Shown: positions 1 to 60,472, numbered from the stretch's first letter. The stretch is DNA of 64,000 nt from an uncultured Planctomycetia bacterium (GCA_903929765.1 CAIYVX010000063.1:10174-74173); one strand, 5' to 3'. Notes: generated by a model not told the origin, from the sequence alone. Program-made: numbers and translations.

Positions 1-528
1 GCCACCACCATGGCTTCCATGGCCGCCAATTTCACCATCGGCTCGGAAAAATTCAACGCTGTCGAATCCCAGATCCGCACCGACCTCGATCTCCTCGAAG
101 CCGCGCGACGCAAGTTCCTCGATCTCATGCACCGCGACATCGAAGCCTACTCCACCGTGAGCGCCGCCTATAAACTACCCAAGGCCACCCCCGCCGAAAA
201 GGCCGCCCGAGACGCCTCCGTCCAATCCGCCCTCTCCGAAGCCATGCTCGTCCCGCTCAAAGCCTCCAAAGTCGCCATCGACGTCCTCGAAGTCACCTCC
301 GAACTCGCCGCCATCGCCAACCCCAACCTCCTCAGCGACGTCGCCGTCGCCGCCATCCTCGCCGAGGCCGCCGTCGCCGCCAGCCGCGTCAACGTCGAGG
401 TCAACCTCAAAAGCTCCTCCAACCCCGCCCTCATCGCCTCCACCCGCCACGACCTCGACGACGCCGACCGCCTCGCCGCCCGCCTCAAATCCCTCGCCCT
501 CGACACCATCCGCAGTAGAGCCAGGTAG
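1..528 (+). CDS. Formiminotransferase-cyclodeaminase / methenyl-THF cyclohydrolase-like protein (FTCD_C family). The 5' end is probably upstream of the window, because the reading frame is already open at nt 1.
   Basis: The translation MASMAANFTIGSEKF...AYKLPKATPAEKAARDASVQSAL...NPNLLSDVAVAAILAEAA...VNLKS follows the conserved layout of the cyclodeaminase/cyclohydrolase domain. The ORF reaches the window edge in frame. Confidence 0.7.
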   Translation, partial: ATTMASMAANFTIGSEKFNAVESQIRTDLDLLEAARRKFLDLMHRDIEAYSTVSAAYKLPKATPAEKAARDASVQSALSEAMLVPLKASKVAIDVLEVTSELAAIANPNLLSDVAVAAILAEAAVAASRVNVEVNLKSSSNPALIASTRHDLDDADRLAARLKSLALDTIRSRAR

Positions 529-550
529 GTCGGGTCAACAGACCCGACAT
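525..550. repeat. REP-type palindromic element GTAGGTCGGGTC-AACA-GACCCGACAT (perfect 8-bp stem, 4-nt loop), directly after the stop codon of the preceding gene. A degenerate composite copy lies at 661-712.
   Basis: The inverted repeat is visible in the sequence. The same core recurs at 4394-4417, 8227-8250, 19772-19799, 27778-27805, 57345-57370, 57381-57402 and 60445-60472. Confidence 0.8.
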
Positions 551-735
551 CCGCTTGCCGTTTCTTTTCCGTTTCCGGGTGCCACACTTTGAAGCCCCGG
601 CTCTGCCGGGGCCAAAGTGTGTTCTTTGTCCTCATCAGAACTATTCGCCCGTTCCATGATCCTGGCCCGACATAGTAAAAAAGAAAAGGTCGGATCCACC
701 GACCCGACCTCTGCTTGCTGTTGCCTTTAAACTTA

Positions 736-1233
736 TTACTTTTTACTTTCTTCCCGCCCCGCCACATGCCGCCAAAACGTCGTCTTCGCCTCCACCTCCC
801 GCCGCGCCGTCATCTCGTCGATCTCAATCTCCACTATCGCGCAGCCCGCCAGACGTTTCGCGTCCAACTCCTTCGCCTCCGGTCGATAGACCCGATTAAA
901 GGCGTTGGCCAACTCCGCCTTCCGCGCCTCCTCCGTCACCAACTTCGCCCGCCCGAACACCAGCACGCTCCAATTGTCCACGTGGCACGGATTCCCGCCG
1001 TGGTCCTGCACCGTCCCCGTCTGCCGGCAGACGCAGAAGCAAATCCGCGGCTGGGCCGCAATCTCGTCCAGCTTCCGCCCCTCCAACGCCCCGTGAAACA
1101 CAATCCGATCCTGCACATAAGCATAGTTCAGCGGTACCGCATAAGCCTGCCCGCCCCCCGCCGTCGCCATCACGCCCCAGTCGCTCTGCCGCAACATCTC
1201 CTCGACCGCCGCTTTGTCGTTAATAAAATCCAT
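736..1233 (-). CDS. Pyridoxamine 5'-phosphate oxidase-like FMN-binding split-barrel protein.
   Basis: 165-aa ORF (MDFINDKAAVEEMLRQSDWGVMATAGGGQAYAVPLNYAYVQDRIVFHGA...) with a PNPOx/NimA-like layout and coding-like composition. Confidence 0.7.
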   Translation of the reverse strand: MDFINDKAAVEEMLRQSDWGVMATAGGGQAYAVPLNYAYVQDRIVFHGALEGRKLDEIAAQPRICFCVCRQTGTVQDHGGNPCHVDNWSVLVFGRAKLVTEEARKAELANAFNRVYRPEAKELDAKRLAGCAIVEIEIDEMTARREVEAKTTFWRHVAGREESKK

Positions 1234-1241
1234 AACTCCTC

Positions 1242-3137
1242 CTAAAGTTCCAGCGGCGAAACCACGTCGCCCTTCTTCGCCTGCAGCGCCGCAATCCGTT
1301 CCCCCTGCGCTTCCAGCGTCTTAAAGACCGCCTCCGGCACGTCCGTCTCGCTCCGGTAAATCTTCATGATCCGCTCGATCTTCTCCAGCAGTTTTACGCA
1401 CCGCACGCTGAACAGCTCGACGTATTTCTCCTTCGTAAACTCTTCCTTGCGGCACTCGCGGAAGAGCTTGGCCAGGTCGTCATAAAGCGGAATCTGCCCC
1501 GTCGGCGTCTGAATCACTTCCACCTCGCCGTGCAGCCGACGCTCGATCCACTGCACCCAGACCTTCTTGTCCAGCATCCCGCTCAAATACTTTCCGTCCG
1601 GCCCTTTGAGGAAATAGTTCACCGAAAAAATCCGCGGCGGGCTTTTCAGCTTCGCCCCGAACTCCAGGTGCCGCGCGATGTACCGCCCCGGCGGCACACT
1701 CAAAAATTGCAGGTTGCTCATCAAATCAAACGTCCGCACCCCCTGCTTCCCGATCACCGCCGCCGTCGTCTCCGACTCCAGCGTCGCCCCCTTCGTCACC
1801 GTCCCATGCACCCAGTCGAACGCCTCTTCCACCGCCACGCAAGTGTCGCTGTCGCGGCCGCCGTAAATGACCCCCTCCAGCGCCACGCCGCGCGGATTGT
1901 CGCAGGCCGCATCGTAATTCCCCAGCTTCGACAGCGAAATCGTGTACCGGGCGTTCTTGTGCGCGTGCGGAATTTCCTCCCCTGCCGCATCCTTCTTTCC
2001 CGTCTGCCACGACCCGGAAAAATTCACCCCGCTCGCCGGCGCCATCCGCCCGTCGCCCAGCCAGTACGGCGTCCCGTCACTCACCAGCACGTTCGAGAAG
2101 ATCACCTCGCCGGGCTTGGTCAGCACGTCCCAGATCAGCGGATCGCTCGCCGCCTTTACGTCCTGAATAATCCCGAAAATCCCGTGCTCCACGTTGGCCG
2201 CGCGGCACTGTCCGCCCATGATCCGCAGAAACGCCAGGTCGTCCCCCACGATCCGCTCGCCCGGAATCATCGCCGTCGAAGTCTTCCCACACGCGCTCGG
2301 AAACGCCCCGGCCAGGTACGTCACCCGCCCCTTCGGCCCGTTCACGCCCATCAGCAACATGTGTTCGCTCAGCCAGCCTTCCCGCGACGCCTTGTTGATC
2401 GACAGCCGCAGCGACAGCTTCTTCAGCCCCACGGTGTTCCCGGCGTACTGCGTGTTGACGCTGTAAACGGTGTTCTCTTCCAGATCGATGCGAATACATT
2501 TCTTGTCATGGTGCTTCGACACGCCGTCCACCGTCTCGCCGCAGGAATGCAGCAACCGGAAAAAGTCCGGCTTGTCGCCCAGCCGCCGGAACTGCTCATA
2601 GCCCTGCCGGTAGAGCAAATCCTCGCTGTGCCCGACGTAAAACGAATCCGTCACCTGCACGCAGCTAATGGCAAACTCCGACTCCGTCGGCCCCAGGCAG
2701 AAAAACCGCACCAGCGCCTGCCGCCCTTTCATGGTGTCTTTCATCCGCTCCCGCACTTCGACCAGACCCTCTTCCTTGCCGACGTGGTTGATGCGGGGCG
2801 AAAACACCACGCCCGGCGGCGCCAAATACTTCGTCGCCCCCGGATCGCGCCCCTGGTCGTTGTACCCGTCGAAGTGGACCGTGTGCCCCTCGGTCACGAG
2901 CGGCGTCTCTTCCTTCCGAGCCACCGCCTGCCCGCGAACATAAGCTATATCCGCCGGATCGTCCGTGCAGACGAACACGCTCTCAGGCTGGCACAGCGCC
3001 ACCGCCTCGGCCACAAACCGGTGCATCGCCGGGTTCCCGAGCGCCAACAGCTTCTCCAGATTCCGGGCGTCCAGCTTCGCCTTCAGAATCTCTATGACCT
3101 CCGCGCTCGCCGCATTTTCCGCTTTCTTTTTGCCCAC
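1242..3137 (-). CDS. pckG: Phosphoenolpyruvate carboxykinase (GTP).
   Basis: 631 aa. It carries the GTP-PEPCK kinase-1a P-loop SACGKTS and conserved blocks such as YNDQGRDPGATKYLAPPGVVFSPRINH and GRMAPASGVNFSGSW. Confidence 0.95.
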   Translation of the reverse strand: MGKKKAENAASAEVIEILKAKLDARNLEKLLALGNPAMHRFVAEAVALCQPESVFVCTDDPADIAYVRGQAVARKEETPLVTEGHTVHFDGYNDQGRDPGATKYLAPPGVVFSPRINHVGKEEGLVEVRERMKDTMKGRQALVRFFCLGPTESEFAISCVQVTDSFYVGHSEDLLYRQGYEQFRRLGDKPDFFRLLHSCGETVDGVSKHHDKKCIRIDLEENTVYSVNTQYAGNTVGLKKLSLRLSINKASREGWLSEHMLLMGVNGPKGRVTYLAGAFPSACGKTSTAMIPGERIVGDDLAFLRIMGGQCRAANVEHGIFGIIQDVKAASDPLIWDVLTKPGEVIFSNVLVSDGTPYWLGDGRMAPASGVNFSGSWQTGKKDAAGEEIPHAHKNARYTISLSKLGNYDAACDNPRGVALEGVIYGGRDSDTCVAVEEAFDWVHGTVTKGATLESETTAAVIGKQGVRTFDLMSNLQFLSVPPGRYIARHLEFGAKLKSPPRIFSVNYFLKGPDGKYLSGMLDKKVWVQWIERRLHGEVEVIQTPTGQIPLYDDLAKLFRECRKEEFTKEKYVELFSVRCVKLLEKIERIMKIYRSETDVPEAVFKTLEAQGERIAALQAKKGDVVSPLEL

Positions 3138-3397
3138 CGTCCCGCCCTCTCACCACGTTTTCCTTGTTTTCACTACTGTTAACCCCGCCCGGCCACGCGC
3201 CGAGCCTCGGGCAGGCGGCAATTTACCATCGCCCTGCCGGGTTGTCAAGCTTGGCTCGAACTGCCGGTTGAATTGCGCTGGGCGTCGGAAAAAAGGGAAA
3301 CAGAAATCAACAAATGCCCTGGAACCTGGGCGAGGTGGCAAGTATCATAGTGTCCTGGAGGTTCGCCGGTCTTATTCGAGAAAGGGCACGGGGCGCT

Positions 3398-4390: not shown

Positions 4391-4446
4391 CGGGTAGGTC
4401 GGACCCTGGCCCGACATCCGACTGCCGTTGCTGTTGCTTCTTCTTA

Positions 4447-4495
4447 TGAAGCCACCAGCATTGCTGGGGGACACTGGTTTTTCTGTTTTAGCCGT
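4447..4495 (+). terminator. Candidate intrinsic terminator for the aldolase-like gene: an imperfect hairpin CCACCAGCATTGCTGGGGG followed by TTTTTCTGTTTT. The hairpin belongs to the CCCCCAGCAGTGCTGGGGG repeat family.
   Basis: A GC-rich stem-loop followed within 10 nt by a T-run on the plus strand, 57 nt after the stop codon at 4390. Confidence 0.45.
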
Positions 4496-4514
4496 TTGCC
4501 CGACGAGAGCCTTT

Positions 4515-8215: not shown

Positions 8216-8226
8216 CGCAGCTTTAT

Positions 8227-8250
8227 GTAGGTTGGGCCCTGGCCCGACAT
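8227..8250. repeat. Variant copy of the REP-type element (GTAGGTTGGGCCCTGGCCCGACAT), 12 nt after the stop codon at 8215.
   Basis: It shares its flanks and the CCCGACAT arm with the 4394-4417 copy. Confidence 0.6.
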
Positions 8251-11883: not shown

Positions 11884-13134
11884 TTAAACCAAACCTTTCT
11901 TCCGCGCCAACTCTTCAAACAACTCTTCATGCCGTTTCACAAACCGTTCCGCCGAAAACTCCTGACGCACCCAGGCTTTTCCTTCTTCCGCCATGCGCCG
12001 CGTTTCGTCCTCGTATTTCAGCGCCTGAAAAATCCCCGCCGCGATGCCTTTGGGATACCCCGGCTCCACCAGCCGTCCGCAACGCCCGTCGGCCACCAAC
12101 TCGCGCATCCCCGCCACGTCGCTCACCACCACCGGCGTCCCCGCCAGCATCGCCTCCAGCACCGCGTTGCTCATCCCCTCGTGGAAACTCGGCAGAATAA
12201 ACAGGTCCGCACGCCGCAAAATCGCCGGCACGTCCGTCCGCGGCCCCACCAGTGTCACGTACCCCTCCACCCGCATCCGCTCCACTTCAAACGCCAGCCG
12301 CGACCGCTCCGGCCCGTCCCCCACAATCCACAAATGCACCGGGCAACGCGTGTGCCGCAACAGGCCCATCGCCCACATCAGGTAAATCAAGCCCTTCTGC
12401 CGCGTCAGCCGACATGCCGTCACCACCAGCTTGTGCCCCGCCGGCACCTCCGGCAGTTGCACAGTGGCACGGGCATCTTGCCCGTGAGTCGCAGGGGCAT
12501 CTTGCCCCTGTGCCTTTGTTGCTTTTTTTTCTTCTTCACCCCTCTCCCTTGAGGGGAGAGGGTAGGGAGAGGGTGTTGCTTCTTCTTTTTCTTCGCTGTT
12601 GTTCTGTTGTTCAATCTCCCCCAACTTTATCCCCGCATGAATGACCCGAATCTTCTCCGCCGGCCAACCGTGCCCCAGCCCATATTCCCGCACCCCCGCC
12701 GAGTTGGCCACAATCGCATCCGTCCGCCGCCCCAGCCGCCGGTCCAGCCAATGGTGCAATCCCGGCTTCGGCCCGCTGTCCTGTTCCCCCGCCACGATCA
12801 CCGGCACCCCCGCCCGCAGCGCCGCCGCCCGACCGAACGCGTTCGCCGTGAACATCCACGTGTACGCAATATCCGTCTGCCGCTCTTTCAGCAGCCGCTC
12901 CAGGCGCAGCACCACGCGCAGGTCGTACTTGAACGCCTTATTCAGTATCGTTACCGGAATCCCCGCCGCCCGAATTTCCGCCTCATGCGGCCCGCCTCGC
13001 GTCAGCGCATAGACGTCCACCTCGAACCGCGCCGGGTCGAGCCGCCGAGCCAGCAGGGCCAACTGCTTCTCCGCTCCCGCCCGGTCCAGTGTCGCGATAA
13101 TCAAGGCCACCCGCAACTTTCTCATGGGAGGCAC
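11884..13134 (-). CDS. GT4-family glycosyltransferase carrying an in-frame low-complexity insertion of about 55 aa encoded by palindromic repeats.
   Basis: The N-terminal Rossmann domain (KLRVALIIATLDRAGAEKQ) and the C-terminal EGMSNAVLEAMLAGTPVV are typical of GT4. The insertion GEIEQQNNSEEKEEATPSPYPLPSRERGEEEKKATKAQGQDAPATHGQDARATVQLPE is encoded by repeat DNA at 12468-12575. Confidence 0.8.
   Translation of the reverse strand: MPPMRKLRVALIIATLDRAGAEKQLALLARRLDPARFEVDVYALTRGGPHEAEIRAAGIPVTILNKAFKYDLRVVLRLERLLKERQTDIAYTWMFTANAFGRAAALRAGVPVIVAGEQDSGPKPGLHHWLDRRLGRRTDAIVANSAGVREYGLGHGWPAEKIRVIHAGIKLGEIEQQNNSEEKEEATPSPYPLPSRERGEEEKKATKAQGQDAPATHGQDARATVQLPEVPAGHKLVVTACRLTRQKGLIYLMWAMGLLRHTRCPVHLWIVGDGPERSRLAFEVERMRVEGYVTLVGPRTDVPAILRRADLFILPSFHEGMSNAVLEAMLAGTPVVVSDVAGMRELVADGRCGRLVEPGYPKGIAAGIFQALKYEDETRRMAEEGKAWVRQEFSAERFVKRHEELFEELARKKGLV
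12468..12575. repeat. Cluster of palindromic repeats inside the GT4 coding sequence: tandem hairpins CACGGGCATCTTGCCCGTG (12468-12486) and CAGGGGCATCTTGCCCCTG (12492-12510), plus CACCCCTCTCCCTTGAGGGGAGAGGGTAGGGAGAGGGTG (12537-12575).
   Basis: Perfect 8-bp stems are visible. The first hairpin recurs intergenically at 57412-57430. The CCCTCTCCC...GGGAGAGGG type recurs at 20971-21020, 38896-38949 and 45051-45094. Confidence 0.75.
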
Positions 13135-13423
13135 ATCTTACACCGCTCCCGCCGGCAGGACAAGGCTGCGGCCATCGGCTTTGCCGTGGAAGGGACAGGG
13201 CACGCCCTGTCCGGCTGTTGTTGTGTGCGGGAAGGGGCGTTTTTTCTCCGCCCTGGCCGTACCGGCGGGAGCCGGCGCCCAAAGTTTTTTCTGCTGTTTC
13301 TTTTGTTTCTGCCGTACCTGAAGCCTGCTGTTCTGAAGTCGGCCGTTCCAAAACAGCGCGGACCAAGCCTCTGCCTTCAGAAGCCTGGTCCGCGATTCTC
13401 GTAAGCTGAAAGAACTTCCTGGG

Positions 13424-13738
13424 TTACCAGCGTCCGCCGCCGCCACCGCCGCGCCCGCCGCGACCACCACCCCCGCCGCCACCGCCGCCGGCCGCCTTGG
13501 GCTTGGCCACGTTGACGGTCAGTTTGCGCCCGTCCACATCGCGCCCGTCGAGCGCCGCTATGGCCGCCTGGGCTTGGCTGTCATCGCCCATTTCGACGAA
13601 GCCGAAACCACGCGATTGCCCCGTGGCCCGGTCGGTGATGAGCGACACACGCTGAATCTCGCCAAACTCGGAGAAAAGCTGGCGAACTTCTTCTTCGCCA
13701 AACCCGAACGGCAGATTCCCCACATAAATATTCACCAT
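13424..13738 (-). CDS. RRM-domain RNA-binding protein with a glycine/arginine-rich tail.
   Basis: NIYVGNLPF (RNP2) and RGFGFVEM (RNP1) followed by a GGGGGGGGRGGRGGGGGG tail. The start is MVNIYVG at 13738. Confidence 0.85.
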   Translation of the reverse strand: MVNIYVGNLPFGFGEEEVRQLFSEFGEIQRVSLITDRATGQSRGFGFVEMGDDSQAQAAIAALDGRDVDGRKLTVNVAKPKAAGGGGGGGGGRGGRGGGGGGRW

Positions 13739-13966
13739 CCAAGTGCTCCCGTGAACTGCAACCGAACCGGAGGCCGATCCGCGCGGTCCCGCGACCACGC
13801 TGAAAAGAGAGTGCCGCCCGTCGGCAGTCTGATATCCTATCTACAGTTGACCGCAGGGGACGGTTTAATGCAAGTTAATTCCAGCGGGATTGACGATCGA
13901 CCACCGGCCACGCCGCCACCGGACGACTTGTGCCCCACGCCGCCGTCGATTACAATTCCATTTGCT

Positions 13967-15175
13967 ATGAAAACTTCGAGGAAGGACAAGTTCGGCCGAA
14001 AGAGCATCGCGGCTCTGGCGGCCAGGAAGACGCTGTGCGTCGCCGGGCTGATGTCGGGCACCTCCGCCGACGGCGTGGACGTGGCCGTGGTCGACCTCGG
14101 GCCTGGAGGCGCGAAGGTCGTGGCTTTCGCCAGTTATCCCTATCCGAAAGAGGTTCGAGAGTTGGTCTTCGAGTTGTTCGACCCGCAGACGGCGCGGGTG
14201 GAGGCCCTCTGCCACGCCAATTTCGTGCTGGGCGAAGTTTTTGCCGAGGCCGTGTTGCGGCTCTGCCGGGAACAGGGCGTGAAACTGACCTCCATCGACC
14301 TGATCGGCTCGCACGGTCAAACCGTTTGCCATTTGCCGCAGGGAAAAAAATTCGGCGGACGGCTGATCCGCTCCACGCTCCAGATCGGCGAACCGTGCGT
14401 CATCGCCGAGCGGACGGGCATTACGACCGTGGCCGATTTCCGCCCGCGCGACATCGCCGCCGGCGGCGAAGGAGCGCCGCTGGTGCCCTTCACCGACTGG
14501 CTGCTCTTCGCCGACCCGCGCCAGACGCGCTGCGTCCAGAACATCGGCGGCATCGCCAACGTGACCTTTCTCCCGGTCGGCGGCGGCGTGGAAAAAGTCC
14601 TGGCCTTCGACACCGGGCCGGGGAACATGATCATCGACCGCCTGGCCTGGCTGGCGACGAAGGGGAAAAGGAATTTCGATAAGGATGGGGAAATGGCGGC
14701 GCGGGGACGGGTGGACACGAAACTTCTGGCAGGATTGATGGGGCATCGGTATTTCACCCGCCGTCCGCCGAAATCGACCGGCCGCGAAATGTTCGGCGTC
14801 GAGTATTCAACCACACTCTACAAATTGGCCAAAGAGGACCAGCTTGAACCGCGAGATATTCTCGCTACCGTCACCGCTTTCACCGCCCGGAGCATCGCCG
14901 ACGCCTACCGCCGGTTTCTTCCGCGTCAGCCCGACGAGGTAATCCTCTGTGGCGGCGGAGCGAGGAATCCGACGCTGGTGGCCATGCTCCGCGAGGAGTT
15001 GCCCGCATCTCGCGTCATGGTCATGGACGAACTGGGCATCAACGCCGACGCGAAAGAGGCGATTTCCTTCGCCCTCCTGGCCCGCGAAACGATTCGCGGC
15101 GCCGCCGGAAACATCCCCGCCGCCACCGGCGCCCGGCGGCGCGTGGTGCTGGGCAAGATCGTGCCGGGCAGCTAA
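13967..15175 (+). CDS. anmK: Anhydro-N-acetylmuramic acid kinase.
   Basis: The start is MKTSRKDK. GLMSGTSADGVDVAVVD is the canonical AnmK N-terminal motif, and the length is about 400 aa. The upstream part of the track ORF starting at 13574 is non-coding read-through. Confidence 0.9.
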   Translation: MKTSRKDKFGRKSIAALAARKTLCVAGLMSGTSADGVDVAVVDLGPGGAKVVAFASYPYPKEVRELVFELFDPQTARVEALCHANFVLGEVFAEAVLRLCREQGVKLTSIDLIGSHGQTVCHLPQGKKFGGRLIRSTLQIGEPCVIAERTGITTVADFRPRDIAAGGEGAPLVPFTDWLLFADPRQTRCVQNIGGIANVTFLPVGGGVEKVLAFDTGPGNMIIDRLAWLATKGKRNFDKDGEMAARGRVDTKLLAGLMGHRYFTRRPPKSTGREMFGVEYSTTLYKLAKEDQLEPRDILATVTAFTARSIADAYRRFLPRQPDEVILCGGGARNPTLVAMLREELPASRVMVMDELGINADAKEAISFALLARETIRGAAGNIPAATGARRRVVLGKIVPGS

Positions 15176-15246
15176 TCGGGTGTTTGACCGCGCCGCCAAG
15201 TTCTGCTAAACTCCCTTCAACCTTAACCCAGAAAGAAGGTAATTCC

Positions 15247-15768
15247 ATGGCGAAGAATGCGAATCCCACGTTGCTCATGACCACCAGCGAAGGCGAGGTC
15301 AAAATCGAACTCTGGCCGGACACGTCGCCGGCCACCGTCGAAAACTTCCTGACCTACGCCAAGGAGGGATTTTACGACGGCACGATCTTCCATCGCGTCA
15401 TCAAGGACTTCATGATCCAGGGCGGCGGATTCACGCCCGAGATGAAGCAGAAGGCCGTCCATGCCCCCATCAAGAACGAGGCCCGGACCGACGCGGCGAA
15501 CAACCGCGGCACCCTGGCCATGGCCCGGACCAACGACGTCAACAGCGCCACAGCCCAGTTTTTCATCAACGTCGTCGATAACGCCTTCCTGACCCATCGC
15601 GACAACACGTCGTCGGGTTTCGGCTACTGCGTCTTCGGCCAGGTCGTCGAGGGGCTGGACGTCGTGGACCGCATTCGGCAGGTGAAAACCCGCAGCGTCG
15701 GCGGCTTCGACGACGTGCCGCAAAAGCCGGTGGTGATCGAAAGCGTGAAAGTGGTCGAAGAGAAATAA
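15247..15768 (+). CDS. ppiB: Cytoplasmic cyclophilin-type peptidyl-prolyl cis-trans isomerase.
   Basis: The cyclophilin signatures [15 protein letters not shown] and ...[24 protein letters not shown]. The start is MAKNANP, with an AAGGT ribosome-binding site. Confidence 0.9.
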
Positions 15769-15785
15769 TCGAGGAGGAACCTGCA

Positions 15786-16445
15786 ATGCGAAAGATGCCG
15801 AGGACGATGTTGTTGGCGGCGCTGGTGGCGGGATATCTGGTCGGCTGCGCGCACAGCGCACCACCCAAGAGCAGCACGCCGGCAACTGCGGCGGCCACGA
15901 ATCAGGCGGCGGTTTCGGCAGCGCCGGCGAAGCCGATGAATCCGCTGATCCTGATCACGACGAGCGAAGGCACGATCAAGATTGAACTCTGGCCGGACAA
16001 GGCCCCGGCTACGGTGGAGAATTTCCTGGCCTACTCCAGGGAAGGTTTCTACGACGGCACGATCTTCCATCGCGTCATCCCGACTTTCATGATCCAGGGC
16101 GGCGGCTTCAGGGCCGACATGGTCCAGAAGCCCACCCACGCGCCGGTCAAGAACGAAGCTCGCAGCGATACGCCGAACAATCGCGGCACCATCGCCATGG
16201 CTCGGACCAACGCGATAGACAGCGCCACGGCCCAGTTCTTCATCAACGTGAAGGATAATGCGAATCTGAACCATAGCAACGACCCGCATCATGGCTTCGG
16301 TTACTGCGTCTTCGGCCTGGTGGTCGAGGGAATGGACGTGGTCGACCGGATTCGCCAAGTGCCGACGCACATGGTCGGCCCGATGGGCGATGTGCCGGTC
16401 ACGCCCGTGGTGATTCAAAGCGTGAAAGTGGTGGAACAGAAGTAG
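15786..16445 (+). CDS. ppiA: Lipoprotein cyclophilin-type peptidyl-prolyl cis-trans isomerase, a paralog of the preceding gene.
   Basis: Signal peptide and lipobox LVGC, followed by the cyclophilin core [15 protein letters not shown]. Confidence 0.9.
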
Positions 16446-16461
16446 CCCGAGGCCCGATTCC

Positions 16462-17358
16462 TTGCCAGACCGTTCTAAACTGACGACCGAGAAGCGCAAC
16501 GCCCGCAGCCGGAACATCGACCGGCTTTCGACGCGGGGCGTGGTCGAGATCATCAACGCCGAAGACGCCCGGGTGGCGCGGGCGGTGGGGCGCGAGGGCC
16601 GGCGCATTGCCGCCCTGGTCGATGCGGTGGTGGACTCTTTCCAGCGCGGCGGGCGGCTGATTTACGTCGGGGCGGGGACAAGCGGGCGGCTGGGCGTGCT
16701 GGATGCGGCGGAATGTCCGCCGACCTTTGGCGTGCCGCGAACGATGGTTCAGGGCATTATCGCGGGCGGGCGGCGGGCTTTGGTCCGCTCCGTCGAAGGG
16801 GCCGAGGATCGCCCGGCGGACGGCGCGGCCGCCGTGGAAAAGCGGCGCGTCGGGCCGAAAGACGTGGTCGTCGGCATTGCCGCGTGCGGCATAACTCCAT
16901 TCGTACACGGTGCCTTGCGGCGGGCGCGGGAACTCGGTGCGCGGACGGCTCTGGTGACTTGTGCCCCGGAGGCTCGCGGGAAGATTAAGGCCGACTTCAT
17001 CATTAATCCGGTCGTCGGACCGGAGGTCGTCACCGGCTCGACGCGGATGAAGGCCGGGACGGCGACCAAGCTGGTGCTGAACACGGTGACGACGGCGGCG
17101 ATGATCCGCCTCGGCAAGGTCCACGGCAACCTGATGGTCGATCTGCGGGCGACCAACGCGAAGCTGCGCGACCGGGCCGAGCGAATTGTCATGGAACTGA
17201 CCCGGCTGGACCGTCCGGCGGCGAAAAAACTTCTGGCGGCGGCCGATGGGGCGGTGAAACCGGCCGTGGTGATGCACTTCCGCAAGGCGAACCTGGCCCA
17301 GGCCCGGGGCATTCTGCGGCGCTGTGGCCAGTCGCTGCGCAAGGCCATGCAAGAATGA
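16462..17358 (+). CDS. murQ: N-acetylmuramic acid 6-phosphate etherase.
   Basis: The SIS-domain motifs GRLIYVGAGTSGRLGVLDAAECPPTF and TGSTRMKAGTATKLVLN, and the conserved C-terminus. Confidence 0.9.
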   Translation: MPDRSKLTTEKRNARSRNIDRLSTRGVVEIINAEDARVARAVGREGRRIAALVDAVVDSFQRGGRLIYVGAGTSGRLGVLDAAECPPTFGVPRTMVQGIIAGGRRALVRSVEGAEDRPADGAAAVEKRRVGPKDVVVGIAACGITPFVHGALRRARELGARTALVTCAPEARGKIKADFIINPVVGPEVVTGSTRMKAGTATKLVLNTVTTAAMIRLGKVHGNLMVDLRATNAKLRDRAERIVMELTRLDRPAAKKLLAAADGAVKPAVVMHFRKANLAQARGILRRCGQSLRKAMQE

Positions 17359-19022
17359 ACGGCGACAATTCGGTTTGGAATACTCTGACGCGGGCGCTGG
17401 GTTGGGGCGACGTGGCGGTGGTAGTCGCAGCCACGGCGGCGCTCTTGGTGATTGCGGCCGTGGCCGGGCGGCGGCAGAAGGACACCCGCGATTACTTCAT
17501 CGGCGAGCGGAAAATACCGGCCTTCGTCGTCTGCCTCTCCTTCGTGGCCACCGAAATCAGCGCCATGACGATCCTCATTGTCCCGGCGGCGGCCTTTGGC
17601 GAAAACTGGAACTATCTCCAACTCTTCATCGGTTCGGTCGCCGCCCGCATCTTCATCGCCTTTTTCTTCCTGCCGCGCTTCTACAAGCACAACGTCACCA
17701 GCATCTACGAATACCTACGCATCCGCTTCGGCCCGGCCACGCAGTACGCCGGATCGATCTTCTTTTTCATCACGCGGCTCCTGGCCTCCGGCATCCGCCT
17801 CTACGCCGCCTGCATGGGCATTGCCATCCTGCTCGGCGCCAGCCGCACCGCTGGCGGCGCCGTCGATGACACCTGGCTCTTCTGGACCATGCTCTTCTTC
17901 GTCCTCGTGAGCGCCGCCTTCACGGCCCTGGGCGGCATTCGCGGCGTGGTCTGGAACGGAGCTTACGAGGCGGTCTTTTTCTACGTCACCGCCGTGGTCC
18001 TCGCGGTCTTTCTGATTCTGCACTTACGCGGCAGCCCTGGCGAAATCTGGCACACCGCCGCCAGCGCCGGGCGGATGGAAGTCTTCAACTTCCGCCTCGA
18101 CATCACCGACGCCAAGACGATCTGGGCCGTGCTGCTCTTCTCCTTTTTCGTCGATGCCGCCGTTTACGGCACCGACCAGGAATTCGTCCAGCGTCTCCTG
18201 ACCGTCAAGACGCGGCAGGCGAGCCAGCGGGCCATGCTCGGCACCATCCTGGCCGGTTTTCCACTGGTCGCCCTCTATCTCTGCGTCGGCACGCTGCTCT
18301 TCGTTTTCTACCAGCAGAACCCGGCGGCCGCGCTGCCCGGCAAAACCGACGAAATCCTCCCTCATTTCGGCACGATGCTGCCGATGGGCCTCAAGGGCCT
18401 GCTGCTGGCGGCCATCGTCCTGGCCGGGATTCACCTGCCGCTCAATTCGCTTTCATCGTCATTTGTCATGGATATTTATAAACGGCTGCTGGTGCGGCAG
18501 GCTTCGGAGCGGCACTATCTGTGGGTGTCGCGCGGGTCGGTCCTGGTCTTCGGCCTGCTCTTGGGCCTGATCGCCTGGCAATTTCGTTCGAGCAAGGGGA
18601 TTCTGTGGATCGGCTTCCAGATTCTCTCCGTCACGGGCGGGGCGACGCTGGGCGTGTTCATGCTGGGCGTGTTGACCAAGCGCCGCGGGAACCGTGGGAA
18701 CGTCGTGGCCATGATCGCCAGTTCGCTGGTGATGCTGACGCTGTTGCTCCTGTCGCACGGGAAACTGTCGTGGCCGGATTGGCCGTGGCTGCGCTCGACG
18801 CTCGACGCGATGAACGATTTCAGCCGCACGAACGCTGCGGGGCACTGGGCGGCGACGGCGATTTATCATGCGGCCCACATCGGCTGGAGTTGGCTGATCG
18901 TGATCGGAACGGGGCTGACGTTCGCTCTGGGGTGGTTACTGGGGCGAAGCGGCTCCGCGACCGGAGACGAAAATCCGGTCGGACCTCTTGACAATCGGGC
19001 CAACGTTAGACAAAATGTCTAA
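17355..19022 (+). CDS. Sodium:solute symporter (SSS) family transporter, translationally coupled to murQ.
   Basis: 555 aa with about 13 predicted transmembrane segments and an SSS-type N-terminal region. The ATGA start/stop overlap with murQ is at 17355-17358. Confidence 0.85.
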   Translation: MNGDNSVWNTLTRALGWGDVAVVVAATAALLVIAAVAGRRQKDTRDYFIGERKIPAFVVCLSFVATEISAMTILIVPAAAFGENWNYLQLFIGSVAARIFIAFFFLPRFYKHNVTSIYEYLRIRFGPATQYAGSIFFFITRLLASGIRLYAACMGIAILLGASRTAGGAVDDTWLFWTMLFFVLVSAAFTALGGIRGVVWNGAYEAVFFYVTAVVLAVFLILHLRGSPGEIWHTAASAGRMEVFNFRLDITDAKTIWAVLLFSFFVDAAVYGTDQEFVQRLLTVKTRQASQRAMLGTILAGFPLVALYLCVGTLLFVFYQQNPAAALPGKTDEILPHFGTMLPMGLKGLLLAAIVLAGIHLPLNSLSSSFVMDIYKRLLVRQASERHYLWVSRGSVLVFGLLLGLIAWQFRSSKGILWIGFQILSVTGGATLGVFMLGVLTKRRGNRGNVVAMIASSLVMLTLLLLSHGKLSWPDWPWLRSTLDAMNDFSRTNAAGHWAATAIYHAAHIGWSWLIVIGTGLTFALGWLLGRSGSATGDENPVGPLDNRANVRQNV

Positions 19023-19325
19023 GTGCGAACAATCAGTCTGAAACCCTTGCGGGACTTCTGGGAGCGTCACCCTGACGCGGAGCGGCCCTTGCGGCTCTGG
19101 TACAAGACGGTCGTTTGCGCCCGCTGGGACAATTTACAGGACGTGCGACAGGATTATCCCCACGCGGACGGCATCAGGACGACCGACGGCGGCACGCTGA
19201 CCGTTTTCAACATCGGCGGCAACAAATATCGGCTGGTGGCGCGCATTCGTTATGACTATGGGTTAGTGAACGTGCGGGCCGTGTTGACGCACGCGGAATA
19301 TAATTCAGGTAGGTGGAAGGAATAG
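19023..19325 (+). CDS. higB: Type II toxin-antitoxin system HigB-family toxin (RelE/ParE fold). It has a GTG start immediately after the TAA stop codon of the transporter gene.
   Basis: FWERHPDAERPLRLWYKTV...VFNIGGNKYRLVARIRYDYGLVNVRAVLTHAEYN matches the HigB-toxin family pattern (FN[IV]GGN.[YL]R[LV]V...THAEYD). Confidence 0.85.
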   Translation: MRTISLKPLRDFWERHPDAERPLRLWYKTVVCARWDNLQDVRQDYPHADGIRTTDGGTLTVFNIGGNKYRLVARIRYDYGLVNVRAVLTHAEYNSGRWKE

Positions 19326-19328
19326 ATT

Positions 19329-19760
19329 ATGGCCGGGACAAAACATATCGTCGGGCGAGAAAAGTTGCCGGGACGGTTCGAGGAACTGGTGCGCGTGATG
19401 CCGCCGCAGAGCATCGTGGATGAGGTGCACTACGAGAACACGCTGGAGATGGTCGATCGTCTGATGGTCGTGGGTCGCCTGACCCGGGGACAGGAACTTT
19501 ACCTGGAGACGCTGGTCGAACTGGTCGAGGCCTTCGAGGCCCGGCAGCACGCCATTGAGACGGCGGACCTCACGGGGCTGGATTCTCTGCGCCACCTGCT
19601 GGAAGCCAATGAAATGGACGCTTCGGACCTGGGACGACTGCTGGGCATCCACGCCAGCATGGGGTCGAAGATTCTGAAGGGTCAACGGGCACTGACGGTC
19701 GGCCATCTGCGAAAACTTGCGAACCGCTTCAAGGTCAGCCCGCAGTTGTTCATGGATTGA
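19329..19760 (+). CDS. higA: HigA-family antitoxin (XRE-type helix-turn-helix).
   Basis: 143 aa. The C-terminal DASDLGRLLGIHASMGSKILKGQRALTVGHLRKLANRFKVSPQLF is an HTH_XRE domain. It starts 3 nt after the higB stop codon. Confidence 0.8.
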   Translation: MAGTKHIVGREKLPGRFEELVRVMPPQSIVDEVHYENTLEMVDRLMVVGRLTRGQELYLETLVELVEAFEARQHAIETADLTGLDSLRHLLEANEMDASDLGRLLGIHASMGSKILKGQRALTVGHLRKLANRFKVSPQLFMD

Positions 19761-19771: not shown

Positions 19772-19799
19772 ATGTCGGGTCTGTTGACCCGACCTACAT
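19772..19799. repeat. REP-type palindrome in inverted orientation (ATGTCGGGTC-TGTT-GACCCGACCTACAT), 12 nt after the higA stop codon.
   Basis: Perfect 8-bp stem. Same family as 525-550. Confidence 0.8.
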
Positions 19800-27749: not shown

Positions 27750-27777
27750 AAAAAAATCCTCTGACCCCTCAGTCAGG

Positions 27778-27805
27778 ATGTCGGGTCTGTTGACCCGACC
27801 TACAT
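27778..27805. repeat. REP-type palindrome (ATGTCGGGTC-TGTT-GACCCGACCTACAT) between the folK stop codon and the panC start codon.
   Basis: Perfect 8-bp stem. Same family as 525-550. Confidence 0.8.
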
Positions 27806-54481: not shown

Positions 54482-54490
54482 CGGTGGAGT

Positions 54491-54633: not shown

Positions 54634-54669
54634 TTCAATTTTTAATTTTGCATTTTTAATTTTTAATTG
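54634..54669. promoter_or_regulatory. Inverted copy of the AT-rich motif (TTTCAATTTTTAATTTTGCATTTTTAATTTTTAATTGC), 5 nt downstream of the nifU stop codon.
   Basis: It is the reverse complement of the 54501-54524 core. Together the two copies form an inverted repeat about 110 nt apart within the nifU-nifS spacer. Confidence 0.5.
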
Positions 54670-54673
54670 CCTC

Positions 54674-55525: not shown

Positions 55526-55565
55526 GGTGAGTCCTTTCAGAACAGCAGTCCTCAGTCTTCAGGCA

Positions 55566-55645
55566 CAGCAACTGCAGAAACACCGGCGTCCCCCAGCAGT
55601 GCTGGTGGCTTCAAAAAAAGAAGCAACAACGGCAACAGCCCCGTC
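55566..55645. repeat. Copy of the repeat family CAGAAACA-CCCCCAGCAGTGCTGGTGGCTTCAAAAAAAGAAGCAACAACGGCAACAGCC, 40 nt upstream of the nifU start codon.
   Basis: Same modules as 38945-39030 and 47527-47600. Confidence 0.65.
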
Positions 55646-55981
55646 TCACTTCATTCTAGCGGGAGGAGCGTACGGCGGCAAGCGGTGATTTACGGGTCGT
55701 TTTCTGTTGACGAGGGCAGGGAGGCGGAGATAGAATGCTCGGTCGCAGGCGGGTCCGTTGACGTGGGCCCTGGTGATGTGGAAGAAGTCGAGGTCGGCCC
55801 GAGACGGGAACGAGGCGTATTCCCTGGAGTCAGAGCATGTAGCGAGCGGCATTAAGATCCTCGGCGTCCCGAAGAAGTTCGAGGCGTCTGCCGCGCCAGA
55901 GGCGCGGCCTGTAGGTGGGGTCCGCTCGCAGCGCTCCACTTTTTTGTTTTTATATGGCCAGGCAGGAAGCAAGGAGAAGGT

Positions 55982-57340
55982 ATGAACAATGAATTGTTGC
56001 GGCTGATCGACGCGATCGCCCGCGAGAAGAACATCGACCGCGAGGTGGTGCTCCAGGGCATCGAAGGGGCGCTGCTCAGCGCCGCCCACAAGCATTGCGG
56101 GATGACGGCCAACGTGGTGGCGAGCATCGACCGGATCACGGGGGCGATGAGCGTGACCTGCGACGGCAAGGAGCTCGACCCGAAACACCTGGGGCGGATA
56201 GCAGCCCAGGCGGCCAAACAGGTGCTGATCCACAAGAACCGCGAGGCGGAGCGGAGTTCGATCTTCGGCGAGTACCAGGGCCGCAAGGGTTCGATCATTT
56301 CGGGCCAGGTTTCGCGGGCCGAGGGCGGGAACATCGTCGTAAACCTGGGCCGGGTGGAGGGCTTTTTGCCGCGCTCGGAGCAGATTCCCGGCGAGGCGAT
56401 TCACGAGGCCGACCGGATTCGGGCGTTGATTTTCGACGTGCGCGAGGCCGGCAACCAGGTCAAGATCATCCTGTCGCGGACCAGTCCGGACTTCATCCGG
56501 CGGCTGTTCGAGCTGGAGGTGCCGGAGGTGGCCGACCGGATCATCGAGATCAAGGGCATCGCCCGCGAGGCGGGACAGCGGACGAAAATCGCGGTGACGT
56601 CGATCGACACGCGGGTGGACGCGGTGGGGGCGTGCGTGGGAATTCGCGGCTCGCGGATCAAAAACATCGTGGAGGAACTGGGCGGCGAAAAAATCGACAT
56701 CGTGCGCTTTAACGAATCCTCGCAGGTGTTCATCGCCAACGCCCTGCGGCCGGCCCTGGTGGAAGACATTTTCCTGAATCACGAACTGGGCCGGGCGACG
56801 GTGATCGTGCCGGAAGACCAGTTGAGCCTGGCCATCGGCAAGCGCGGCCAGAACGTGCGCCTGGCGGCGCGGCTGACGGGATGGGACCTGGACATCATGA
56901 TGGCGGGCGAGTTCGCCCAGCAGCGGGACAACGCCGTCAAGGTGCTGGCCGAGGTGCCGGGGATGGACCAGGCCCTGGCGGAGCGGATTGCGGCGGCTGG
57001 GTTTGTGTCGCTGGGCGACATTGCCCGGCTCGACCCGCAGATTCTGACGCGGTTCGAAGGGGTGAACGAACAACTTTCGCAGGACATTATCAACTTCTCG
57101 GCCGAGTATGTGCGGCAGCTTGAAGCGGCCAAGACGGAGGAGACGGTGGCGTTGGCGTCGGCGACGGCGGAAGGTGAATTGATCGCGGGCGCGGAGTTGG
57201 CCGAGAACGCCCCGGACGCGCCGAGCGAAGGTCTGGCGGAGGTTCTGGACGCGGAAGGCGCGGCGGCGGAAGGTGAAAAAGCCGTCGAGAAACCGGCGGA
57301 AACCGAGAAGCCGGGTGAGGCGGAGAAGCCGAGCGCGTAA
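55982..57340 (+). CDS. nusA: Transcription termination/antitermination factor NusA.
   Basis: The N-terminal NusA domain ([20 protein letters not shown]), the S1 domain, and the KH domains with [22 protein letters not shown] and [21 protein letters not shown]. Confidence 0.95.
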
Positions 57341-57344
57341 GCAA

Positions 57345-57402
57345 GTAGGTCGGGTCAACAGACCCGACATTATCAGTAGCACGTCGGGTCTGTTGACCCG
57401 AC
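57345..57402. repeat. Tandem inverted pair of REP-type palindromes (GTAGGTCGGGTC-AACA-GACCCGACAT and ACGTCGGGTC-TGTT-GACCCGAC), 5 nt after the nusA stop codon. A CACGGGCAAGATGCCCGTG hairpin follows at 57412-57430.
   Basis: Two perfect 8-bp-stem hairpins in opposite orientation, 10 nt apart. The third hairpin is identical to the one inside the GT4 gene. Confidence 0.8.
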
Positions 57403-57460
57403 TAACGTTCTACAAAGCTCACGGGCAAGATGCCCGTGCTACTGTAAAGGGAGAGCCTCA

Positions 57461-60436
57461 TTGAGCATCCGAGTTTACGGCCTCTCAACTGAGTTGGGCG
57501 TTACCAGCAAGAAGTTGCTGGAACTGTGTCAGCTTGAGGGGATCGACGCGAAGAGCCATGCGGCGACGCTGACCGAAAGCGAAGCGACCCGTCTGCGCGT
57601 GCGGATCAAGGCGGATTCCGAGCCGGCGGCTAAGGCGGCGGAGACACCGGCGGCAGAGCCGGCTCCGGCGGCGGAAGGGGCGAAGTTGGCGTTCGCGCCG
57701 AAGCTGGGTGCGGTGCGACGGCGACCGCCGCAAAAAGGCGTGGCCATAGAAGAGGCCAAGGCGAGCCCCGCGGCGGCGACCGCGGAAGCGGTCGTGGCGG
57801 CGGTTCCCGCCGTGGCGGTCGCTGCTAAAGTTGAGTCAGCGCCGGCAACACCAGCGGTCGCGGCGCCGGTCGAGGCGGCGGAGGTCGCTGCGGCGGCGCC
57901 GGTCGCGGAGCCTGTGACGGCAGCGCCGACGGAAGCTGAGACGGAAGCGCCGGCGGCCGAGGTCGTCTCGGAGCCAGAAACTCCGCCGACCGAGATAGCA
58001 CCGCCCAAGAAGAAAAAAGTTTCAATTGATGAGTTTGTGGTCGAGGTGCCCAAGGCCATCGGCCGCATCGAAGGCATTGTGCCGAAGAAGATTCCGGTCC
58101 GCGACCGGGATCGCAAAAAAGGGCGAGAGAAGAAGGAAGAAGAGAAGCCGGCGGAAGCGGGTGGTCGGGCTCATCCACAGTCGATTGGACTACCGCCGGA
58201 GCAAACGGAAGCGGGCAAGAAGGCCAAGGAGATCGCCTCTCGGGCGATTCGTGAAGCGCACAAGCAGTCGCCGAGCCAGAAGGGCCTGATGGCGGACACA
58301 AACCGTCCGCAATCGGGTCGGTCGGCCAGCGCCGGCGGCCGTCGCGGGGCTGCCGCGGCGAGCGGGGGCGTGGCAGAGGCAGCGCCGGGACCGCGCGGCG
58401 GGCCATCGCGCGGCGGGGCTTCGCGCGGCGGGGCCGGCGGCGAACCGGACGCTCCTGAAACTGATGAGCGTAAGGGCGTTAAGCCGGTCAAACGGTCGCA
58501 GGACGCCCGGCGGCGCGACAAGGTGGAATTGGACTCGGACATCGGGGTTCTGGCGGCGGGGCACGTCCGGCTGGAGCGCGGCGAGCCGATCCGCAAGACC
58601 TATACGGAACGGCGGCGCCGGCAGCGGCCGCTGAAGACGAAGAAGGCGGACGAACCGCTGCACGGCGGGGCGGTGGAGATTGAAGAGCCGATTACGATCA
58701 AGTCGTTCTGCGCGGCCTTGGGCGTTCAGGCCAGCGCGGTGATCGCGCGGCTGATGCGCAGCGGGGTGATGGCGACGGTAAACCAGGCCCTGGCGACGGA
58801 TCAGGCGGAGGCGCTGGCCATCGAGTTCGGTGTGGAACTGAAGGTGAAACAGCAACTGGACGTGGAAGAGTCGATTGCGGCGGCCGTCACCGGGAGCGAC
58901 GGCGAAGGCGAAGAGCCGGGCGTGCGTCAGCCGCGAGCGCCGGTGGTAACGTTCCTGGGTCACGTCGACCACGGCAAGACGAGCTTGATGGACCAGATTC
59001 GCCGGACCAACGTGGTTTCGGGCGAGGCCGGCGGGATAACGCAGCACATCGGGGCCTACCGGGTTCAGGTGGGCGAGCGGGCCGTGACGTTCCTGGACAC
59101 ACCGGGTCACGAGGCGTTTACGGCCATGCGGGCCCGCGGGGCGCGAATCACGGACATCGTGGTGCTGGTGGTGGCGGCGGACGACGGCATCATGCCGCAG
59201 ACCGACGAGGCGATCAATCACGCCCGGGCGGCGAAGGTGCCGATCGTGGTGGCGCTCAACAAGGTGGACAAGCCGGAGGCGAACTTGCAGCGGGTGCTGG
59301 GCCAGTTGGCCGAGCGCGACCTGGTGCCGGAAGAGTGGGGCGGCAAGACGATTGTCATTCAGACCGCAGCGACGACGGGCCAGGGCATTCCGGAACTGCT
59401 GGAAGCCCTGACACTGGAAGCGGAAATGCTGGAACTGGGCGCGGTGCCGGACCGGTTGGCCCGCGGAACGGTGATCGAAGCACGAATGGACGAGGGCCTC
59501 GGTCCGGTCACGACGGTGCTGGTGCAGGATGGCACGCTGCGCGTGGGCCAGGCGATTCTGGCCGGGACGGCCTTCGGTCGCGTGCGGGCGATGACGGACG
59601 ACGCAGGACGGACGGTGACGGAAGCGGCGCCGAGCATGCCGGTGCGGGTCAGCGGGTTTTCGGCGGTGCCCAACGCGGGAGACCGGTTCACGGTGCTGGA
59701 AAATCTCCAGGCGGCGCGCGAGTTCGCCGAGCAGCGGGCCGACAAGACGCGGCAGGCGGCGCTGGTCTCGCGCAAGCACGTCACGCTGGAAAAGTTGATG
59801 GAGCAGATGGCGGCGACCGAGGTGAAGATGCTCAACGTCATCCTCAAGGGCGACGTGCAGGGCTCGGTCGAAGTGCTGAAGTCAGCCATCGGAGAGTTGA
59901 AGCACCCGGAAGTTCAGGTGGCGGTGCTGCACGCGGGGGTCGGGGCGATCAACGAGAGCGACGTGATTCTGGCCGACGCCAGCGACGCGGTGATCATCGG
60001 CTTCGGCGTCATTGCCGACGACACGGGCCGGGCTTTGGCCGAGCAGAAGGGCGTGGACATCCGGGTTTACACGATTATTTACCAGGTCATCGACGACCTC
60101 AAGGCGGCGCTCCAGGGCATGCTCAAGCCGGAGAAGAAGCAGCAGGTGGTCGGGCATCTGGTGGTGCGAACCACCTTCAAGGTTTCGCGCGTGGGGACGA
60201 TTGCGGGTTGCTACGTCACCGACGGCGTGTTCCGGCGAGCCAATCCGGTGCGCGTCAGCCGGCACGGCGTGGTGGTCTACGAAGGCAAGATCGATTCGCT
60301 GAAACGGTTCAAGGACGACGCCAAAGAAGTGGCGTCGGGGTTGGAATGCGGGTTGAAGATCGCCGGGTTCGACGACATCAAGGCCGATGACGTGGTGGAG
60401 TCAATCGAGACGATTGAAATCAAACGCACGCTATGA
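57461..60436 (+). CDS. infB: Translation initiation factor IF-2.
   Basis: TTG start. The N-terminus is Ala/Pro/Glu-rich. The G-domain is [12 protein letters not shown]...DTPGHEAF...NKVD, followed by the C-terminal beta-barrels. Confidence 0.95.
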
Positions 60437-60444
60437 GCCTACGG

Positions 60445-60472
60445 ATGTCGGGTCTGTTGACCCGGCCTGCAT
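60445..60472. repeat. REP-type palindrome (ATGTCGGGTC-TGTT-GACCCGGCCTGCAT), 9 nt after the infB stop codon.
   Basis: Same family as 525-550. The stem has one mismatch. Confidence 0.7.

Follow-up and report, generated by a model that had tools for sequence, protein, structure and literature searches.

Short GTAG-tagged palindromes in uncultured Phycisphaerae as probable transposase-maintained repetitive extragenic palindromes

A stretch of 64,000 nucleotides from an uncultured Planctomycetia bacterium (GCA_903929765.1, CAIYVX010000063.1:10174-74173; hereafter the window, meaning the whole stretch analysed) contains a family of short palindromes, many of which lie only a few nucleotides behind the stop codon of a gene. 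A first-pass annotation, made from the sequence, called them a REP-like palindrome family and proposed that they stabilise the 3′ ends of transcripts or serve as Rho-independent punctuation signals. The locus thus raises the question of whether these hairpins are signals that act in RNA or elements that persist as DNA. Our analysis argues for the latter: the palindromes are very probably GTAG-tagged repetitive extragenic palindromes (REPs), non-autonomous DNA elements maintained by an HUH/Y1 REP-associated tyrosine transposase (RAYT, or TnpAREP) encoded elsewhere in the genome. The term 'REP-like' was therefore right, and more literally so than had been meant.

Anatomy and spread of the palindromes

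The exact pattern GTCGGGTCNNNNGACCCGAC, in which the arms GTCGGGTC and GACCCGAC enclose any four nucleotides (GTCGGGTC-N4-GACCCGAC), occurs five times in the window, at 529, 19774, 27780, 57349 and 57383, whereas the count expected from 100 dinucleotide-preserving shuffles is 0.00; as the first-pass annotation held, these are not random repeats. Allowing up to three mismatches added the sites at 60447 and 689, each with one mismatch. The window holds about ten copies in its 64 kb, all intergenic: five perfect hairpins, one near-perfect, two variant, one diverged and one fragment. An origin of the hairpins by chance or from low-complexity sequence was ruled out by the same shuffles.

When all copies are oriented alike, the consensus reads GTAG-GTCGGGTC-AACA-GACCCGAC-AT. 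The stem itself is a perfect palindrome, and the loop of the main type is invariably AACA (TGTT on the opposite strand), which gives the element an orientation. Read from the loop, both orientations are indeed present in the window, as had been noted. The two sites previously listed as variants, 4394-4417 (GTAGGTCGGACCCTGGCCCGACAT) and 8227-8250 (GTAGGTTGGGCCCTGGCCCGACAT), constitute a genuine second sequence type that keeps the GTAG and ACAT flanks; the tagged strand is GTAG-GTCGGGTCAACAGACCCGAC in the main type and GTAG-GTCGGGCCCTGGCCCGAC in the variant type. The copy described as degenerate at 661-712 is related to the family but resolves into two parts, a 3′ fragment (661-673) and a diverged member (685-712). 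An unpaired GTAG abuts the stem in six of nine window copies, the tetranucleotide in the other three being GTTA, GCAG and AGAG. The main-type hairpin, with its perfect 8-bp stem and 4-nt loop, has a folding energy of -9.7 kcal/mol as DNA (z=-5.7) in a window with a GC content of about 63%. A scan of the whole window at Rfam gathering thresholds returned no family. REPs of the class recognised by RAYTs are characterised by a GTAG that stays unpaired immediately 5′ of a short hairpin (PMC3733652, PMC3333891, PMC8266576). The copies and the hairpins next to them are as follows; distances are counted from the stop codon to the element.

525-550, plus strand: main-type REP, GTAG-GTCGGGTC-AACA-GACCCGAC-AT; the TAG of its own GTAG (526-528) serves as the stop codon of the FTCD_C (FTCD-like) gene (1-528), hence a distance of -3 nt
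583-630, plus strand: not a REP; long hairpin (583-621) followed by TTCTTTGTC, which likely terminates the FTCD-like gene and lies downstream of the 525 REP (fold prediction)
661-673, plus strand: fragment, 3′ half of a variant-type REP, CCTGGCCCGACAT
685-712, minus strand: diverged member, AGAG-GTCGGGTC-GGTG-GATCCGAC-CTTT, 23 nt past the stop of a PNPOx-like gene (736-1233, minus strand)
4394-4417, plus strand: variant-type REP, GTAG-GTCGGAC-CCTG-GCCCGAC-AT, one stem mismatch; 3 nt past the stop of the HMGL-like aldolase gene
8227-8250, plus strand: variant-type REP, GTAG-GTTGGGC-CCTG-GCCCGAC-AT; 11 nt past the stop of a gene for a Cys-rich protein of 256 aa, in a spacer convergent with tsaE
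19772-19797, minus strand: main-type REP, perfect; 11 nt past the higA stop, in the orientation opposite to higA
27750-27776, minus strand: not a REP; hairpin CTGACTGAGGGGTCAG with a T7 run, a canonical terminator downstream of the folK REP (terminator scan)
27778-27803, minus strand: main-type REP, perfect; 11 nt past the folK (HPPK) stop (9 nt if counted to the earlier outer bound, 27805), in the same orientation as folK, with the separate intrinsic terminator directly next to it
57345-57370, plus strand: main-type REP, perfect; left half of an inverted doublet, resembling a REP doublet forming a hairpin (REPIN) or a bacterial interspersed mosaic element (BIME); 4 nt past the nusA stop
57381-57406, minus strand: main-type REP with perfect core and a tag decayed to GTTA; right half of the doublet, 40 nt past the stop
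60445-60470, minus strand: main-type REP, decayed (tag GCAG, one stem mismatch); 8 nt past the stop, filling the 39-nt infB-DUF503 spacer

Other genomes were scanned, one per species, with the 20-nt core lacking the GTAG, and at least 87 stretches were listed. The exact REP is present in at least 12 other metagenome-assembled genomes (MAGs), labelled Phycisphaerae, Planctomycetota or 'Anaerolineales' and ranging from 51 to 70% GC. In the 135 non-window copies among the matches listed, the 5′ tag is G128/T121/A129/G129 (about 95%) and the 3′ side is loosely conserved. Because the GTAG lay outside the search pattern, its conservation counts in favour of an oriented, tagged element. A census of loci in related genomes, again among the matches listed, comprised 107 clusters, with genes called by our own crude codon-usage caller (coding fractions about 0.5-0.9). 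Of these clusters 101 are extragenic and 6 lie within called genes, although some 80% of the DNA is coding; 82 are singletons. The exact 24-mer is absent from the viral contigs of IMG/VR, so that nothing there points to carriage by phages.

Sequence similarity extends beyond the hairpin. Across loci the 5′ flank has the consensus CAGCNC-GTAG, and the 3′ tails past the hairpin are specific to genomes: ATCC-CTTGCCG in the window and in JADHXV, CCTTCTC in CAYGZE and CAZGEE, and GGAATG in CAXXKI. The 26-nt hairpin is probably only a part of the mobile unit. A tail of 12-20 nt (ATCC-N-CTTGCCG...) is common to window positions 529-570, 4398-4440 and 689-730 and to two retrieved loci (L005 and L041, JADHXV; L numbers denote retrieved loci throughout).

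Two further observations concern the non-window copies. In seven of them a tandem duplication of the unit [4-5 nt flank + GTAG + left arm + AACA] directly precedes the complete REP (L008 7860, L025 6266, L027 6258, L028 7507, L031 491, L054 4015 and L062 6362); its junction falls after the loop CA and its 5′ boundary is often CA^G. Such duplications may be a footprint of cleavage and ligation by the RAYT or of hairpin slippage. The MAGs labelled 'Anaerolineales/Anaerolineaceae' (L003, L004, L009, L011 and others; CAYGZE, CAZGEE, CAYTJE) carry the exact REP together with its RAYT, and their aldolase and NusA are 70% and 78% identical to the proteins of the window, which is Phycisphaerae-like. 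Either these labels look doubtful or the bins look contaminated.

Association with a RAYT gene and insertion polymorphism

The link to a transposase comes from locus L011, where tblastn revealed an open reading frame of 191 aa (1019-1594) that matches the NCBIfam model NF047646, REP-associated tyrosine transposase, with 185.6 bits (cut-off 80). The protein also passes the threshold of Pfam Y1_Tnp and matches the E. coli TnpAREP structure (PDB 4ER8) with E=1.8e-40. The exact window REP brackets this gene, at 927-950 on the plus strand and at 1603-1626 on the minus strand, with both GTAG tags facing outward. Five loci have a REP on both sides of a complete RAYT gene of 191-196 aa (L011, L173, L174 and L175/L176); the sequence is exactly that of the window beside RAYTs that are 76, 71 and 69% identical (L173, L174 and L175/L176, respectively). 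A loop variant that differs by one base, AGCA, stands on either side of a RAYT with 61% identity (L177). In two further loci the REP adjoins a RAYT gene on one side, the gene being interrupted in L039 and partial in L111. The interruption in L039 (1417-2045, minus strand) consists of about 140 nt with an internal repeat, the peptide DRSITVAVL being encoded twice; the gene is either a pseudogene or one that bears an insertion of the kind reported within the transposase genes of some RAYT subclasses.

The arrangement recurs in more distant relatives. Among 80 further RAYT loci from metagenomes (42-68% identity), 51 have an outward GTAG followed by a perfect hairpin within 250 nt, compared with 1.1% for the same hairpin criterion in control windows at least 1 kb away on the same contigs. 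The stems of these hairpins are lineage-specific, for example GTAGGGTGGGCATCGCCCACC or GTAGGTCAGGCTGTGCCTGAC. Palindrome and transposase thus vary together: the REP is identical at RAYT identities of 69% and above, a loop variant appears at 61%, and at 57% and below the stems differ while the GTAG is kept. The catalytic motifs are intact, the HUH histidines H60 and H62, the catalytic tyrosine Y133 and N137 being invariant in 16 homologues in the family alignment. Identity of the REP while the RAYT diverges to about 69% and the host GC content spans 20 points indicates that recognition is tightly constrained.

Inverted pairs are another feature of such elements. The doublet 57345-57406 can pair into a single 20-bp hairpin (-26 kcal/mol as DNA, z=-9.9). 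Adjacent pairs number 28: in 17 the partners are inverted, GTAG faces outward and the spacer measures 9-40 nt; 10 pairs are direct, and in one GTAG points inward. The same inverted doublet stands in the nusA-infB spacer of the closest relative found (L088, NusA 93% identical), where both REP cores are unchanged relative to the window while the surrounding spacer has accumulated insertions, deletions and substitutions. Both the doublet and the infB-DUF503 copy are absent in the relatives L089, L090 and L092, whose NusA proteins are 84, 79 and 71% identical. At a syntenic JAAYDY locus (L085) a REP occupies the adjoining spacer and is oriented the other way, which shows that positions are not conserved at deeper divergence. 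The nusA-infB spacer of the window contains, in addition, a 27-nt hairpin at 57413-57440 (CACGGGCA-AGA-TGCCCGTG, with flanks) that is missing from the alignable L088 spacer and looks like a second small insertion.

The enzymology of REP movement would follow that of the proteins characterised biochemically from E. coli, S. maltophilia and Marinomonas. RAYTs need a GTAG and a hairpin on single-stranded DNA (PMC3333891, PMC8266576). When DNA is transiently single-stranded, the RAYT would bind the strand that carries the 5′-GTAG and the hairpin, cut at a CT or CA dinucleotide close by and re-ligate the ends (PMC3333891, PMC8266576), with the outcome that single REPs and inverted doublets may be excised, copied or inserted. 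Copies would persist in places where the damage is slight, namely between genes, and in this compact genome such places usually begin a few nucleotides past a stop codon. Once transcribed, a hairpin may secondarily block 3′-exonucleases or stall terminating ribosomes, by analogy with E. coli REPs.

Position relative to genes and to strand asymmetry

Pfam supports most of the gene names on which the proposal of 3′-end signals was built: FTCD_C, HMGL-like aldolase, HigB/HTH (higA), HPPK (folK), NusA and IF-2 (infB). The protein described as 'zinc-ribbon' has no Pfam match and displays several CxxC pairs. Also identified in the window are panC, tsaE, murJ, DUF503 and rbfA. Immediately upstream of the REP at 19772 lies a toxin-antitoxin pair, higB (HigB_toxin) and higA (HTH_3), at 19023-19760. 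The REP at 60445-60470 ends 5 nt before the ATG of DUF503, over the usual ribosome-binding region, in a spacer that is REP-free in L089, L090 and L092.

The placement of every copy 5-15 nt downstream of a stop codon, as initially described, is approximately correct: seven sites lie at -3 to 11 nt, but the second copy of the doublet (57381) lies at 40 nt and the diverged member (685-712) at 23 nt. The spacers that hold the window copies are short, 39-210 nt, and when stop proximity was compared with uniform placement in these same spacers the combined p-value was 0.015. It rises to about 0.13, by hand calculation from the per-copy p-values, once the circular case of the 525 copy, whose own TAG is the stop, is left out. 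Closeness to stop codons is thus mostly due to the shortness of the spacers. No window copy lies in a divergent spacer, and the copies at 525, 4394 and 8227 are in convergent ones.

The census described above shows no significant bias towards gene 3′ ends. Tandem, convergent and divergent spacers are represented by 50, 21 and 14 clusters (expected 52, 16 and 17; p=0.36), and 30 clusters are nearer to a stop and 20 nearer to a start (p=0.2). The statement that the element comes always just after a stop codon therefore holds for the first copies in the window, all of which are within 11 nt, but not for other genomes, where the median distance is about 85 nt. Compared with the gene whose end faces the element, 49 copies have the same orientation and 46 the opposite one.

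Terminator scans called none of the six main copies, and no T-tract follows these, in agreement with the first-pass annotation, which had denied T-tracts to the whole family. The denial fails for 685-712 (minus strand), whose tail is TCTTTTTT, and is only weakly true for 8231-8248. Intrinsic terminators were accordingly rejected as the identity of the main copies. The separate terminator behind the folK REP was detected by the scan, whereas the terminator-like hairpin behind the 525 copy was predicted by folding and not reported by the scan; these two REPs thus come after the stop codon and ahead of the actual or, at 525, likely terminator. The diverged member at 685-712 (minus strand) has a stem of 10-12 bp, depending on the method, followed by TCTTTTTT, and is terminator-like. 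Judged from its sequence, it looks like a working intrinsic terminator of the PNPOx-like gene, and it may be an exapted REP.

Could the hairpins nevertheless be selected RNA elements, that is lineage-specific stem-loops in 3′ untranslated regions that stabilise mRNA or mark its ends, with an incidental link to the transposase? We consider this improbable, although several observations are what such a role would produce. The proximity of the first window copies to stop codons and its combined p-value fit it; the hairpins are predicted to be strong as RNA (-15.5 kcal/mol for the main type in either orientation); the REP cores have stayed the same between the window and L088 amid changes in the spacer; 685-712 is built like a complete intrinsic terminator; and in E. 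coli, stabilisation of mRNA by REPs has been reported, and so has an influence on translation if they are closer than 16 nt to the stop (PMC12306157, PMC6006769). Yet the elements show no preference in gene orientation and retain their asymmetric GTAG whichever way transcription runs. The main copies lack a U-tract, terminator-like hairpins stand behind two of them, and two sites lie inside the conserved gene string nusA-infB-DUF503-rbfA. The corresponding gene ends of relatives are free of the hairpins, spacer classes elsewhere equal the background and distances to stops there are long, and the combined p-value of the window rises to about 0.13 with the 525 copy removed. Stabilisation of 3′ ends or Rho-independent punctuation is thus not supported as the primary role, in view of random orientation, missing U-tracts in the main copies, the terminator-like hairpins that follow two copies, the sites within the gene string and the lack of a significant stop-side bias; overall, the data speak only weakly for a 3′-end signal. 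Even less credible, in our judgement, is the proposal that the palindromes are double-stranded sites to which a host protein binds, be it a regulator acting as a dimer or a factor of the nucleoid or gyrase/IHF type, and that they serve chromosome organisation or regulation. A perfect 8+8 palindrome, dispersed and exactly conserved across genomes of 51-70% GC, would suit such a protein, and E. coli REPs and BIMEs have been reported to bind IHF, DNA polymerase I and gyrase (PMC6006769). A symmetric operator, however, would need neither an asymmetric AACA loop nor a one-sided GTAG; the sites are not in promoter regions, as the lack of copies in divergent spacers of the window illustrates; and the same sequence stands at the RAYT gene in seven loci and changes along with the RAYT lineage.

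The interpretation as transposase-maintained REPs has to be weighed against four points of its own. The window contains no RAYT gene that tblastn could detect with E. coli RayT and the L011 RAYT as queries. Genomes typically have about one RAYT gene each, so that its absence from 64 kb is expected; we infer an active cognate transposase in this organism, and the RAYT would be encoded elsewhere in the source genome. No other locus yielded the variant type (4394, 8227), nor was this type seen beside a RAYT. The mobility proposed here is deduced from presence/absence comparisons between sequences. Finally, the clustering of window copies within 13 nt of stop codons (p=0.015) leaves some room for selection at, or targeting to, gene ends.

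A secondary effect in RNA is compatible with elements kept by a RAYT. By analogy with E. coli, it is plausible that the hairpins block exonucleases or, within 15 nt of a stop, stall ribosomes. E. coli REPs that begin under 16 nt past a stop codon are reported to down-regulate translation (Liang et al. 2015, as cited in PMC12306157), and seven window sites (-3 to 11 nt) lie within that distance.

The orientation of the elements follows a different asymmetry. GC skew was estimated over 6 kb from 8-kb blocks of loci L001-L087 and of the window. Where the absolute GC skew is at least 0.05, the GTAG strand of singletons is the locally C-rich strand in 33 of 39 copies (about 85%; Fisher p=3e-6), or in 23 loci against 4 when counted by locus. 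For all 101 singletons the correlation is r=-0.38 and is independent of gene-strand balance. Within the window, three plus-strand copies lie at a skew of about -0.25 and three minus-strand singletons at +0.2, and REP orientation flips where the skew flips. We did not find such a bias stated in the REP/RAYT papers searched for it, among them PMC6006769, PMC3333891 and PMC8266576, and it may be new. That REP orientation is coupled to the replication strand is a tentative suggestion, about which we are more doubtful than confident. A possible cause would be that copies are preferentially excised when their active strand lies open on the lagging-strand template; if the G-rich strand is the leading strand, the bias is opposite to the rule known for IS608 and ISDra2. 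Should the coupling be true genome-wide, it would be direct genomic evidence of REP gain and loss at replication forks, and, if confirmed on complete genomes, the bias would bear on how and where RAYTs act in vivo. Together with the conservation of the 24-mer across 51-70% GC, it would make these Phycisphaerae a useful natural system for RAYT/REP dynamics.

The GC skew of the window is very strong and changes sign: it is about -0.25 to -0.34 at 1-13 kb, near 0 at 13-19 kb and between +0.2 and +0.3 beyond 20 kb. The minus strand carries most genes to either side of the switch, and the skew is therefore not a coding-strand effect. No dnaA or dnaN is found among the genes between 8.8 and 19 kb. 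An origin, a terminus or the breakpoint of a rearrangement may account for the switch at about 13000-19500.

Relation to known REP systems

The hairpins should be labelled REP or REPIN in annotations rather than novel RNA motifs or terminators. A REP provides at least one of the window's stop codons, and the elements explain fragmented assemblies, many RAYT contigs being 1-2 kb long and ending in REPs. The defining features of the REP/RAYT (REPtron, REPIN) system that were examined in the window and in related loci are all present, and the documented REP/RAYT partnership is extended to uncultured Phycisphaerae.

GTAG REPs have been catalogued in Planctomycetes and the wider Planctomycetes-Verrucomicrobia-Chlamydiae (PVC) group, in Rhodopirellula baltica and Opitutus terrae (Di Nocera et al. 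2013, PMC3733652). As described in the text of that paper, the superfamily is defined, as here, by a GTAG and a stem of 6-13 bp; its members lie mostly downstream of open reading frames, their TAG sometimes acting as the stop codon, as at 526-528, and RAYT genes are flanked by the repeats, as in our loci. The text of PMC3733652 has no mention of Phycisphaerae, and the palindromes constitute a previously uncatalogued REP family of uncultured Phycisphaerae, as far as the 24 families of that study are compared through its text rather than through its stem/loop figure.

Among characterised systems, the REP-BIME/TnpAREP system of E. coli (RayT/YafM, 4ER8) likewise consists of dispersed extragenic singletons and inverted doublets, with a transposase gene bracketed by inverted REPs. 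E. coli TnpAREP is the closest solved relative of the RAYT described here, 43% identical over its full length, and the HUH and tyrosine motifs are present in the latter. In shape the closest REP is that of the S. maltophilia REPtron Sm, a perfect palindrome of 16 nt with a loop of 3-4 nt directly preceded by GTAG (PMC8266576). The stem and loop sequences differ from those of both species, and the stem bulge needed by E. coli REPs is absent. The hosts differ as well, uncultured Phycisphaerae here and Proteobacteria in the case of REPtrons. REPs are usually described as species-specific (PMC6006769), whereas an identical 24-mer is found here in genomes of 51-70% GC.

The REPINs of P. fluorescens SBW25 (Bertels and Rainey 2011, PMC3116915) are likewise inverted pairs that fold into a long hairpin, as does the doublet at 57345-57406 with its 20 bp; the inheritance of this doublet at the same locus in the closest relative and the occurrence of singletons that resemble decayed or partial units have their counterparts there. 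In contrast to SBW25, singletons prevail here (82 of 107 clusters) and the doublet spacers are short (9-40 nt). More distantly, the subterminal hairpins of IS200/IS605 elements (IS608, ISDra2) also have a 5′ guide tetranucleotide and are recognised on one strand by a Y1 HUH enzyme (PMC3333891), but the REPs are 26 nt long, occur in high copy number and have no transposase gene between two different ends.

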